Below are positions 45,585-48,082 of a DNA stretch of 48,082 nucleotides, one piece after another; the first letter of the stretch is position 1; each line of letters starts with the position of its first letter. Position numbers and translations under genes: made by a program. Under the pieces are notes generated by a model. It had not been told where the DNA came from, ran no database searches, and saw only the letters and a list, made by a program, of their open reading frames with translations. Source of the DNA: a virus (taxonomy: Duplodnaviria > Heunggongvirae > Uroviricota > Caudoviricetes); the IMG/VR virus record IMGVR_UViG_3300001199_000003, positions 122,537 to 170,618 of that record; one strand, given 5' to 3'.

Positions 45585-45810
45585 CTTTAAAGCACACCAC
45601 AGCAGTATTCTCAGGAACTAACTTCTTGGTCACAAGACGAAGGCGGATCTTTTCGGCTTCCTCTTCAGCAAGCTCCATGAAAGTGGCTTTAACGGTCATG
45701 TTTGCATACGCTCCATGAGAACCGATAATAGCACATTTAAAAATTGAGTCAGGTCGTTTAGGGCTGATAGCGCACGATGTCAATAAAAGAAGCGGTAGTA
45801 GAAATTTCAT
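45562..45810 (-). CDS. Small lipoprotein (82 aa)
   Basis: Start re-assigned to MKFLLPLLLLTS-C (lipobox LTSC); SD GGAGG. Confidence 0.7.
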   Translation of the reverse strand: MKFLLPLLLLTSCAISPKRPDSIFKCAIIGSHGAYANMTVKATFMELAEEEAEKIRLRLVTKKLVPENTAVVCFKDENQVKR

Positions 45811-45829
45811 AAAATCCTCCATTAGGTCA

Positions 45830-45858
45830 AGTATAAGGCAGGAGATAAAATCTGTCAA
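45830..45858 (-). promoter_or_regulatory. Strong sigma70 promoter TTGACA-17-TATACT
   Basis: Consensus -35, 17-nt spacer, -10 with one mismatch. Confidence 0.88.
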
Positions 45859-45876
45859 CGTGTTTATGGCTTCCGA

Positions 45877-45904
45877 GCGAAGCGAGTTGTTGCGCGAAGC
45901 GCAA
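45877..45904 (+). other. Two GCGAAGC mini-hairpin heptamers, the second extended to TTGCGC-GAA-GCGCAA
   Basis: GCGAAGC at 45877-45883 and 45894-45900 in a non-coding gap. Confidence 0.7.
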
Positions 45905-45906
45905 AG

Positions 45907-45932
45907 AACCCGCCCAATTTTTTGGACGGGTT
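45907..45932 (-). terminator. Probable intrinsic terminator after the 377-aa gene
   Basis: Minus strand AACCCGUCCAA-AAAA-UUGGGCGGGUU (11 bp including one G-U) followed by CUUUG. Confidence 0.6.
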
Positions 45933-45966
45933 TTAGAGCTGTAAGTGATTGATATGACGTAGCGCG

Positions 45967-47100
45967 TTATTTAGAGAACTTTGCGTGAACACGAACCTTG
46001 CGATCATCTTCCGAAGTAAAAGATTCAACCGAAACAGTGGTATTTTTTAGATCTTCATTTTGACGTGCAGCAGCTTCATTTACGATTTCACGATTCTGCA
46101 GATAATTCTGAACATACGCTTTACGGCTTGCTTCAGACATTCCCATCTCGATAGAAACTTCTTCGATTTGGTAATTACGGCCGTTCGACAAATGTTGACC
46201 TAATCCGCCTTCAAGATTTTCCGACCTAATTCCAAGTTCGCGTAGTGGCAACTTTGGCATCTTGACCAAACTGTCTAGACCTAGCTCTTTTAGGAGCTTA
46301 TGTTGATCTACAAAAAGGAAACAGAAAAGAGCCTTAGTATGGACGCCCGAACCTACCGTATCGGCAAGGTACAGGGTTGACGGTAACACGATGTGACCTA
46401 GAATAAGGCCTTTATCGGATAGGATCTGGAGATCTTGACGCATAGCTTTAATTGCCAGTTCTTCATCTGGAGCTTCATAAGTGTAGGACAGATATGACGC
46501 AGGGCTTACTCGTCTTTGGATGTACTTTGACGGAATGTACCGTTTTAGTCGAGGAAACCGACTCGCAAAGTGGGCTAGTTTTTGGAAGAATCCAGGACCA
46601 TTTGGAATGTCATAATATTGCATGAGCTGGCAATTCATCTTACGTTTTTCTAAGTCAGCCCTGATTTGGGGCGTCAAAACCTTGGCCGAAACATCGCCAA
46701 CTAGACCGTCCGAGATCTTGAGGGAGTCGGCTAACTCGACTTCTGCAGAGGGCTCGAATTCCAGGATATGATCTTTAACCATCGTGAAAGGGTCAAAACC
46801 AGGCACGCCTAAAATACTTTGAAGAGCACTAACTCGGTAATGAATGATCTTACCATCACCTAGATTTCGCGCATAGCGTAAACTGAGATCGGTCACGGCT
46901 AAAGGTCGCAACACGATCTTAGGCCTAGCGGCAGCACGACACATATCGTCAAGTTCTTTATCGGGGTCGTAGCCTTCCATCGGGTTCAGTTTCTTTTGTT
47001 CCATTTGGTTTCCTTTATTAGAGTTTAAATGTTTAGACTGGTTTTCCACATCTCTACGGCGTTGGTTAAAATAGACCGAGGTCTTGAGGTCCATCGCCAT
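45967..47100 (-). CDS. Hypothetical protein (377 aa; second in-frame start at 47004 gives 345 aa)
   Basis: Long ORF with no recognised motif; both ATG 47100 and ATG 47004 have AAGGA SD sequences. Confidence 0.7.
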   Translation of the reverse strand: MAMDLKTSVYFNQRRRDVENQSKHLNSNKGNQMEQKKLNPMEGYDPDKELDDMCRAAARPKIVLRPLAVTDLSLRYARNLGDGKIIHYRVSALQSILGVPGFDPFTMVKDHILEFEPSAEVELADSLKISDGLVGDVSAKVLTPQIRADLEKRKMNCQLMQYYDIPNGPGFFQKLAHFASRFPRLKRYIPSKYIQRRVSPASYLSYTYEAPDEELAIKAMRQDLQILSDKGLILGHIVLPSTLYLADTVGSGVHTKALFCFLFVDQHKLLKELGLDSLVKMPKLPLRELGIRSENLEGGLGQHLSNGRNYQIEEVSIEMGMSEASRKAYVQNYLQNREIVNEAAARQNEDLKNTTVSVESFTSEDDRKVRVHAKFSK

Positions 47101-47243
47101 TATAGGTCCTTTCTCAGCTTACACTTACAACGCTCACATTGGCCTTGCTTTGGACTCGATAAGCGTAGGTTCCCAAGCTCATCGCGGTAGATGTCCAGGA
47201 TGAACCTATGGTAGCCAAATAAGCAGAGGATTCGAGACAGCAT
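47100..47243 (-). CDS. Small DUF1660-like protein (47 aa): MLSRILCLFGYHRFILDIYRDELGNLRLSSPKQGQCERCKCKLRKDL
   Basis: Hand-translated; ILCLFGYH...CERC pattern; TAATG overlap with the next gene. Confidence 0.65.
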   Translation of the reverse strand: MLSRILCLFGYHRFILDIYRDELGNLRLSSPKQGQCERCKCKLRKDL

Positions 47244-47271
47244 GGTTGGTCCTAGGGTTGGGCATTATGAA

Positions 47272-47343
47272 GGCGGGACCGCTCAGACGCTACCCTGAGT
47301 CCATCGCCTTATCGGGGGCGAGGTGCGCTTACACTACAGTCCC
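47272..47343 (-). ncRNA. Cryptic tRNA-like cloverleaf with non-canonical loops (degenerate anticodon loop CCCGAUAA)
   Basis: GGGACTG-TA-GTGT-AAGC-GCAC-C-TCGCC-CCCGATAA-GGCGA-TGGA-CTCAG-GGTAGCGT-CTGAG-CGGTCCC-G-CC: 7/4/5/5-bp stems in tRNA order; 4 nt downstream of tRNA-Ala. Confidence 0.75.
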
Positions 47344-47347
47344 ATTA

Positions 47348-47423
47348 TGGTGGAGCCTGTCGGGATCGAACCGACGACCTTTAGCTTGCAAAGCTAACGC
47401 TCTCCCAATTGAGCTAAGGCCCC
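47348..47423 (-). tRNA. tRNA-Ala(UGC), CCA encoded
   Basis: GGGGCCTTAGCTCAATTGGGAGAGCGTTAGCTTTGCAAGCTAAAGGTCGTCGGTTCGATCCCGACAGGCTCCACCA; G3:U70 Ala identity pair; TTCGA T-loop; TGATATATCT promoter-like box at 47431-47440. Confidence 0.97.
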
Positions 47424-47445
47424 ATGTGAAAGATATATCACAGTC

Positions 47446-47742
47446 CTATTTGAAACTCTTATTGAAACCATAATAGGCCGATACCGTGCCCGTCACTAGG
47501 CCAAAGAGGGTGCCGGTTAAGAACATGTTCATTAGACCAGTAAGCTCACCACAGTAGCTGTACGGCCCGAGACCAGCCCCACAGAAACCGAACGCGAGGT
47601 AAGTCCCGACTACAGTTCCTGTAACGCACCCCATAACGGCGTAACTCATGGCACGCAGCGTTGGGCTCTTTTCACGGTTAGCTCTCCGGCTTAGGAAGAG
47701 TGAGGTCACGATGGCAAATAGTACGAGGGTGATTGGCTCCAT
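47446..47742 (-). CDS. Glycine-zipper membrane protein (98 aa, about 3 TM)
   Basis: SD AAGGAG; GCVTGTVVGT and GTLFGLVTG motifs. Confidence 0.65.
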   Translation of the reverse strand: MEPITLVLFAIVTSLFLSRRANREKSPTLRAMSYAVMGCVTGTVVGTYLAFGFCGAGLGPYSYCGELTGLMNMFLTGTLFGLVTGTVSAYYGFNKSFK

Positions 47743-47763
47743 ATTGGGCTCCTTTGATACTCT

Positions 47764-47792
47764 ACTATATCACGCGGGGATTAGGGCCGCAA
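47764..47792 (-). promoter_or_regulatory. Sigma70 promoter TTGCGG-17-TATAGT (extended TG)
   Basis: 17-nt spacer; TGA before the -10, as in other promoters of this genome. Confidence 0.7.
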
Positions 47793-48082
47793 GACACATA
47801 TCGTCATGGGTGTGGATTTGTCCTGGATAGACCGACTGGGTGTAGAAAGCTCCTAAGAGGATGGTCCCTCTAGGGGCAAAACCTAGTCGGGACACGGCGT
47901 CACAAGTGAATTCAATAACTTAGGGGCGTTACAGTCCAGGAATTTTTTTAGAAAAAAAATTTAGAAAATATTTTCATCATTACACTATTTCTATATATCC
48001 CAGCGTTTAGTCTGCAAGCCTAATGCCAACCCCGATAACCCAAAAACGCTAGGGATTACGGGGGTTTAACTGACCTCGCTTG

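Follow-up and report, generated by a model that had tools for sequence, protein, structure and literature searches.

A cryptic tRNA-shaped element with rewritten loops behind a tRNA-Ala gene of an uncultured groundwater phage

In plant mitochondria, non-canonical cloverleaves known as t-elements direct cleavage by RNase P and RNase Z at mRNA ends (Forner et al. 2007, PMC1920247). They adjoin mRNA in a longer transcript and are thought or have been shown to be cut by these two enzymes, a step that defines RNA ends and frees the elements as small, non-aminoacylated RNAs. They keep the T-loop motif GGTTCRANYCC, which was the basis of their discovery (PMC1920247). In Escherichia coli, RNase P alone separates the two tRNAs of valV-valW, which lie 4 nt apart, and its cut at the 5' terminus of the second unit, itself a true tRNA whose elbow is intact, also frees the first (Mohanty and Kushner 2007, PMC2190699). 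Phages also carry small structured RNAs in or beside their tRNA transcription units, such as RNA C and RNA D of T4, which are conserved in T4-like phages and were seen by Northern blot. Both are longer than, and unlike, simple 72-nt cloverleaves. The function of RNA C and RNA D is still unknown (PMC9697503). Finally, phages can respond to defences that cleave tRNA by supplying tRNAs of their own, including those that allow escape from PARIS and retrons (van den Berg et al. 2023, PMC10264068; PMC11464382; PMC11555353); such anti-nuclease tRNAs are functional and canonical, with altered anticodon loops that carry a few substitutions.

The element described here sits among these known kinds, that of tRNA-like elements and that of the additional RNAs found in tRNA clusters of phages. 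It lies in a stretch of 48,082 nt (the window), which is the final 48 kb of a 170,618-bp IMG/VR virus record. On the minus strand, positions 47275-47343 form a cloverleaf with tRNA geometry in which 21/21 pairs are intact, and the element as a whole comprises 72 nt (47272-47343). Its acceptor stem, GGGACUG/CGGUCCC, has 7 bp including one U-G pair; the 5' strand (47337-47343) shows pair probabilities of 0.97-1.0, and the 3' strand is followed by a discriminator G and by CC (47272-47281), after which comes a U, so that CCA is not encoded. The D arm, GUGU-AAGC-GCAC (47323-47334), combines a 4-bp stem, also with one U-G pair, and a 4-nt loop without G18/G19; it is the weakest helix (pair probability ~0.3) and has a rival, shifted 3-bp register. 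The anticodon-type arm, UCGCC-CCCGAUAA-GGCGA (47304-47321; pair probabilities 0.92-1.0), carries an 8-nt loop with C at the position of U33. The T-type arm, CUCAG-GGUAGCGU-CUGAG (47282-47299), has no UUC and retains the G53-C61 pair, and its loop measures 8 nt, or 6 nt given an extra G-U pair. The connectors are canonical (2 nt, U8-A9, between acceptor and D stems; 1 nt between D and anticodon stems; 0 nt between T and acceptor stems), and the variable region has 4 nt. These stems and loops and the discriminator followed by CCU had all been listed in an earlier note made from the letters alone, and all were confirmed in the sequence.

The gene directly upstream encodes tRNA-Ala(UGC) (47348-47423, minus strand), which is canonical, has an encoded CCA, is the first cistron of the unit, and was called by ARAGORN and by Rfam (RF00005, 71 bits). 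Between its CCA and G1 of the cloverleaf (47343) lies the spacer UAAU (47344-47347), at the length of 4 nt that the same note had stated; in the other tRNA array of the phage, too, spacers are short (4-10 nt) and AT-rich. On the downstream side, an A/U-rich spacer and 5' untranslated region, UUCAUAAUGCCC...AGGA (47244-47271, minus strand), leads into a small ORF for which AGGA is the Shine-Dalgarno sequence. The element is bracketed by two copies of the direct repeat CATAATG (7 nt; window 47341-47349 and 47263-47269, minus strand): copy 1 consists of the CA of the tRNA-Ala CCA, the spacer and G1, and copy 2 lies 5 nt past the discriminator. This repeat might be a trace of recombination, or might have arisen by chance, the spacers being AT-rich.

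We then compared the element with canonical tRNAs. It shares with them the stem lengths of 7/4/5/5 bp and the 2/1/0-nt connectors (in order, 7/2/4/.../1/5/.../5/0/7), U8, G53-C61 and a GC content like that of tRNAs (65.3%; the genome has 41.2% and its true tRNAs have 51-64%), and it occupies the slot of a second tRNA in the operon, behind a 4-nt spacer. However, the loops differ throughout. The D loop has 4 nt. In place of an anticodon loop of 7 nt that has U33 and purine 37 stands CCCGAUAA, with 8 nt and C instead of U33. The elbow nucleotides G18-G19 and T54-Psi55-C56...A58 and the 7-nt T loop are absent, only U8 and G53-C61 being retained, and the 3' end reads G-CCU, whereas all 5 tRNAs of the genome and an RNA in the Asp-Gly spacer of its tRNA array encode CCA. 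In agreement with the prediction that standard scanners would miss it, the element was not called by ARAGORN at default settings and appeared only at -ps70, among 637 calls, with a 4-nt anticodon, cgat. The Rfam tRNA covariance model RF00005 (gathering threshold 29 bits) gave no score to the element, even at E<=10 on 86 nt, and other Rfam families produced only noise on it (e.g., MIR2907, 15.9 bits). Global alignment of the element with the genome's five tRNAs gave z <=2, a similarity no greater than shuffled copies would show and below tRNA-to-tRNA scores, with no special likeness to tRNA-Ala. By every sequence criterion, then, the element is not a canonical tRNA. It does not look like a pseudo-tRNA either, as no sequence homology to a tRNA is recognisable and no stem is disrupted. 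Other identities were also considered. An att-site remnant was set aside since sequence identity to tRNAs is lacking, a terminator since there is no U tract, a MITE or other repeat since the element is single copy in the genome, and a gene on the plus strand since the G-U pairs turn into A-C mismatches there.

The Asp-Gly spacer RNA is a second tRNA look-alike embedded in a tRNA array of this genome, within a spacer of 93 nt (G000:C1:27958-28050, minus strand, equivalent to L013:459-551). It has a 7-bp acceptor-type stem, GAGAAGU/GCUUCUC, a discriminator A and an encoded CCA, and its interior forms two non-tRNA hairpins. A search of this spacer RNA against Rfam gave no family match.

To estimate how often such a shape arises by chance, the 170,618-bp genome was scanned on both strands for perfect 7/4/5/5 helices, with G-U allowed, in tRNA order and with tRNA connectors, irrespective of the loops. 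This loop-agnostic scan returned 4 matches genome-wide, namely tRNA-Ala, tRNA-Asp, tRNA-Pro and the element. In 100 simulated first-order Markov genomes with the same dinucleotide statistics, the mean was 0.01 perfect cloverleaves, rising to 0.2 per simulated genome when 384 loop geometries were allowed; by arithmetic from the latter run, a perfect cloverleaf within 10 nt downstream of any of the 5 tRNAs is expected ~3e-5 times. When one mismatch was allowed, the other two true tRNAs were recovered together with two chance matches, compared to 5.4 expected. Folding energies were less striking. The isolated element had an RNAfold z-score of -1.24, and unimpressive fold-energy z-scores are common among tRNAs; pair probabilities were 0.7-1.0 in the acceptor, anticodon and T stems, comparable to tRNA-Ala. 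In a 201-nt context, the minimum-energy fold swaps the acceptor and T arms for pairing with downstream sequence (z -0.48, not significant). In that fold (47244-47303, minus strand), sequence around the Shine-Dalgarno site of the small ORF pairs with the variable region and with the T arm's 5' strand, a structure that excludes the cloverleaf. The two low z-scores are what could be said for a chance fold of intergenic sequence; against it stand the 0.01-0.2 perfect cloverleaves expected per genome and the ~3e-5 expected directly behind a tRNA, the 65% GC of the element, and a tRNA-sized indel relative to related phages, described below. The shape statistics effectively refute a chance fold. Thus, the element is a genuine, non-random tRNA-shaped module. 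The loop-blind scan itself was highly specific, given that 3 of its 4 perfect matches in a 170-kb genome are true tRNAs, and it would lend itself to surveys of phage genomes for such cryptic modules.

The surroundings of the element were examined for signals of transcription. A promoter-like extended -10, TG-A-TATATC (47424-47445, minus strand), ends ~8 nt before G1 of tRNA-Ala and would serve as a promoter; it is conserved at the same place as TG-A-TATAAG in three related contigs, L002, L004 and L006 (L002:2720-2749; L006:1690-1719). A two-hexamer promoter scan did not list this extended -10 upstream of tRNA-Ala, and in the scanned region 45800-48082 its sole strong minus-strand match was located downstream, at 45858-45830. 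No minus-strand terminator-like site was found in the same region, which includes everything from tRNA-Ala through a gene for 377 aa, making co-transcription of the element with tRNA-Ala likely. These signals support the claim that both stand under the same promoter, and place the two in one apparent transcription unit. The position of the extended -10 would make tRNA-Ala the near-leaderless first cistron of an mRNA operon, an arrangement that is conserved in relatives.

Two protein-coding ORFs follow the element on the minus strand. The first has 47 codons (47100-47243), the Shine-Dalgarno sequence AGGA and ~70% nucleotide identity with its counterparts in L002 and L006; a Q-G-Q-C-E-R-C motif is found near its C terminus, and the protein collection does not list it as a gene. 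The second encodes the 377-aa protein (45967-47100). Neither ORF had a match to a known family. Searches with the 377-aa, 98-aa and 47-aa proteins against Pfam, PHROGs and the Atlas returned nothing useful.

Seven homologues of the 377-aa protein were found among 5.8 billion proteins, and these gave access to related loci. Four contigs with homologues at 69-70% identity (L002, L003, L004 and L006) retain tRNA-Ala, the upstream extended -10, the 47-codon ORF and the large ORF; the cloverleaf is absent from all of them. The number of relatives counted as keeping the flanks without the element is three (L002, L004 and L006), or four with L003. After the CCA of tRNA-Ala, the relatives continue with T (or AT) and then CCTTATAA..., whereas the window has CCA, TAAT, the cloverleaf, G, and then the homologous CCTTCATAA.... 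Indeed, the window spacer 47244-47271 is homologous to the spacer directly after tRNA-Ala in the relatives (71-89% identity). From this alignment of the flanks, the difference is a clean 72-73-nt indel, the size of one tRNA gene. Since the relatives keep the operon without the element, neither expression nor processing of the operon requires it. L005, which is more distant (61% identity), has no tRNA-Ala either, and the contig of the closest one, L008 (73% identity), ends too soon to show presence or absence of the element. The tree of the 377-aa homologues is a polytomy, so that gain and loss of the element look alike. In L005 (2336-5683), a 207-aa ORF lies upstream in place of the tRNA-Ala unit, and a ResIII/Helicase_C gene and a homing-endonuclease-like gene come after the 377-aa homologue. 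The neighbourhood around the 377-aa gene is reshuffled from phage to phage.

No homologue of the element was found in any of the searches performed. An exact 21-mer of its 5' half had 0 matches in IMG/VR. A pattern with fixed loops and free stems matched 0 viral contigs, 0 genome contigs and 1 metagenome contig (L012), where no stems are present and the match is due to chance; the converse pattern, with fixed stems and free loops, had 0 matches in viral and genome contigs and thus revealed no canonical donor. BLAST of the element against GenBank phages at E<=10 returned only a 23-nt chance match, a single-sequence covariance model (R1) run on the phage's own genome found the element alone, and no internal copy exists within that genome. 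The surroundings gave similar results: a 26-mer specific to this tRNA-Ala allele had 0 matches in IMG/VR, a related-locus search with three neighbouring proteins returned nothing, a pattern for the conserved small ORF had 0 matches in the viral and metagenome collections, and a protein search with the 47-aa ORF yielded no candidates. Among sequencing runs, the stretch was present in one groundwater metagenome run only, probably its source, on a single contig of 171,229 nt at 27x; other runs contained a generic tRNA-Ala only, or ~110 nt of the small ORF, on short contigs that end before the element. None of the RNA runs contained the stretch, a result that carries no information on expression. 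The element is therefore a single-copy orphan of one genome, without a homologue in the viral, metagenome and genome collections searched.

The neighbouring tRNA-Ala was taken as an internal clock of divergence, next to the small ORF with its ~70% identity. Among the window (47348-47423), L002 (2750-2825) and L006 (1720-1795), tRNA-Ala is 78-83% identical. Nine of its 21 pairs were replaced on both sides, namely 5/5 in the anticodon stem and 4/5 in the T stem, with 100% of the pairing kept; the acceptor stem, D arm and anticodon loop are invariant in all three. Such stem turnover is unusually fast for one orthologous tRNA, or else reflects allele replacement. This divergence of the flanks, together with the 21/21 intact pairs and 65% GC in a 41% genome, indicates that the element is either recent or selected for its structure, and if it is recent, the donor already had perfect stems and non-tRNA loops. 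Three rewritten loops with zero breaks in the stems are unlike neutral decay. The argument that intact stems with altered loops speak against random decay is sound as reasoning, and the support that it gains from the composition of the element and from the pair turnover in tRNA-Ala is indirect. From composition and divergence, we infer that the shape was kept by selection, here or in a very recent donor, and a shape maintained without decoding is likely.

Taken as a whole, we tentatively favour the reading that the element is a non-decoding, t-element-like module that is co-transcribed with tRNA-Ala and excised by RNase P and 3' processing, to which we assign a probability of about 40%. Transcription and cleavage of the element, and any benefit to the phage, are what we infer from its sequence and position. 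In this model, the element would be transcribed as the second member of the tRNA-Ala operon, starting at the extended -10 promoter that relatives share, and would form the cloverleaf with acceptor and T stems stacked as a minihelix of ~12 bp. Host tRNA-processing enzymes might then handle it like a tRNA, with RNase P cutting between U(-1) and G(+1). Such a cut would leave tRNA-Ala with just a 4-nt 3' trailer, comparable to E. coli valV-valW. On the other side, RNase E and exonucleases, or RNase Z, may cut the A/U-rich spacer after G-CC. The element would thus act as tRNA-like punctuation, or a structure module, between a tRNA and a downstream mRNA, and would be released as a stable RNA of ~72 nt that is not aminoacylated; should cleavage on the 3' side be inefficient, the mRNA would instead bear a base-paired 5' cap.

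Several observations favour the t-element-like reading. Bacterial RNase P prefers U(-1), a G1-C72 pair, a 12-bp stack of acceptor and T stems (7+5 bp) and G73-C74-C75. All of these (U(-1), G1-C72, the 7+5-bp stack and G73-C74-C75) are present at the 5' junction of the element, which amounts to a predicted RNase P context. Similarly to t-elements, the element is a non-canonical cloverleaf that adjoins mRNA in what is probably a longer transcript: it lies between tRNA-Ala and a conserved small ORF, and no terminator was found between them. Similarly to valV-valW, 4 nt separate the upstream CCA from the next cloverleaf. Perfect shape, position 4 nt behind tRNA-Ala, membership in the same unit, cleavage context and precedent together favour the t-element-like reading, and we also counted in its favour the 65.3% GC, the divergence of tRNA-Ala and the second look-alike in the Asp-Gly spacer.

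Other observations weigh against it. The elbow formed by the T loop and D loop serves as a ruler for RNase P, RNase Z and the CCA-adding enzyme, according to one report (PMC4919913), and the element has no such elbow. It thereby differs from the downstream tRNA of valV-valW, and also from t-elements, whose T-loop motif it does not have. Moreover, t-elements are organellar and their cleavage was mapped experimentally, whereas the element is phage-encoded and its processing is predicted. The relatives do without the element, the predicted fold is a different one in the 201-nt context, CCA is unencoded unlike in every other tRNA-type gene of this genome, and searches found no homologue; each of these points weighs in the same direction. 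With RNA C and RNA D of T4, the element shares the character of a small structured RNA in a phage tRNA transcription unit. However, those RNAs are conserved across related phages, whereas the element is an orphan known from DNA alone and is absent from L002, L003, L004 and L006.

Other accounts of the element were weighed against the same observations. It might be a functionless relic, that is, a tRNA gene recently gained in, or left over in, the tRNA-Ala unit, which has lost decoding and is heading for deletion, a stage that the relatives would already have reached. Such a history would fit a feature of one genome for which the relatives lack a clean, tRNA-sized block, and which neither ARAGORN at default settings nor the Rfam tRNA model accepts. 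It would fit the enlarged anticodon and T loops and the loss of U33, GG, TPsiC and of the CCA that the other tRNA-type genes of this genome encode. The sequence GAUAA in the CCCGAUAA loop, which we take to be similar to the loop CUGAUAA of tRNA-Ile, points the same way. Of the likeness to tRNA-Ile proposed earlier, this pentamer is the part that stood; alignment and phage BLAST showed no sequence similarity to any tRNA. A relic is harder to reconcile with 21/21 intact pairs beside loops that are all non-canonical, with 65% GC in a 41% genome, or with the fact that it resembles neither the tRNAs encoded by the same genome (z <=2) nor any phage sequence at a detectable level. The stem-fixed, loop-free pattern searches show no canonical donor from which it could descend, and with flanks as diverged as these, neutral decay would have disrupted the stems. 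We consider a relic rather unlikely. A tRNA that still decodes with its expanded anticodon loop, as a quadruplet (+1 frameshift) reader of AUCG or as an aberrant Ile-type tRNA, is barely credible. Frameshift-suppressor tRNAs can have 8-nt anticodon loops, which is the loop length found here, and ARAGORN at -ps70 reads the 4-nt anticodon cgat. However, the element has no U33, no elbow between D and T loops and no synthetase identity set, as its G3-C70 pair is presumably not the Ala determinant and its G73 presumably unfit for Ile. The quadruplet reading, which the earlier note had raised, predicts sites at +1 ORF junctions, and there the result was negative: none of ATCG, TCGG, CGGG and TATC is enriched, each having 0-2 sites compared with a median of 1 (maximum 9), and the sole ATCG junction is an ordinary gene boundary between a complete metallophosphatase and an independent ORF.

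The element could also act as a decoy or sponge, a non-decoding mimic that titrates a host factor reading tRNA shape or the acceptor end, such as a tRNA-targeting defence effector or a tRNA-processing or -modifying enzyme. Shape retained without decoding features would suit this role, as would the use of tRNAs against tRNA-cleaving defences by other phages. However, the countermeasures known from phages are working, canonical tRNAs whose anticodon loops differ from the host target, not loop-less mimics, and the element, although likewise a tRNA-type gene with an altered anticodon loop, is non-canonical and cannot plausibly decode. What anticodon nucleases read is the anticodon loop, and that of the element is unrecognisable; nor is the element conserved even in the nearest relatives. 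The genome has no CCA-adding enzyme and no RtcB (PF01743 and PF01139 absent); the Rnl1 model PF09511 had 0 matches in it, but also 0 in 14 control genomes. Nothing in these results points to the decoy or inhibitor role that the earlier note had suggested, and we regard it as improbable. In a more specific version, the element would be a loop-blanked mimic that has a tRNA's helical body and acceptor end but is stripped of the parts read by the ribosome, synthetases and anticodon nucleases, and that acts as a decoy or competitive inhibitor. Its targets would be found among toxins that modify CCA ends, tRNases that read shape, RNase P or the CCA-adding enzyme; we hold this version to be quite improbable.

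The biological weight of the element is modest, as it is a single orphan from one uncultured groundwater phage whose relatives do without it. Should the loop-blanked decoy prove true, it would reveal a class of phage counter-defence RNA that is invisible to standard tRNA finders. Provided that its RNA is produced and processed, the element would join a growing number of genes in phage tRNA arrays that are overlooked by standard annotation. It would then represent, in a virus of bacteria, the equivalent of the organellar t-elements, with a tRNA body kept purely for its shape and embedded between a tRNA and an mRNA.
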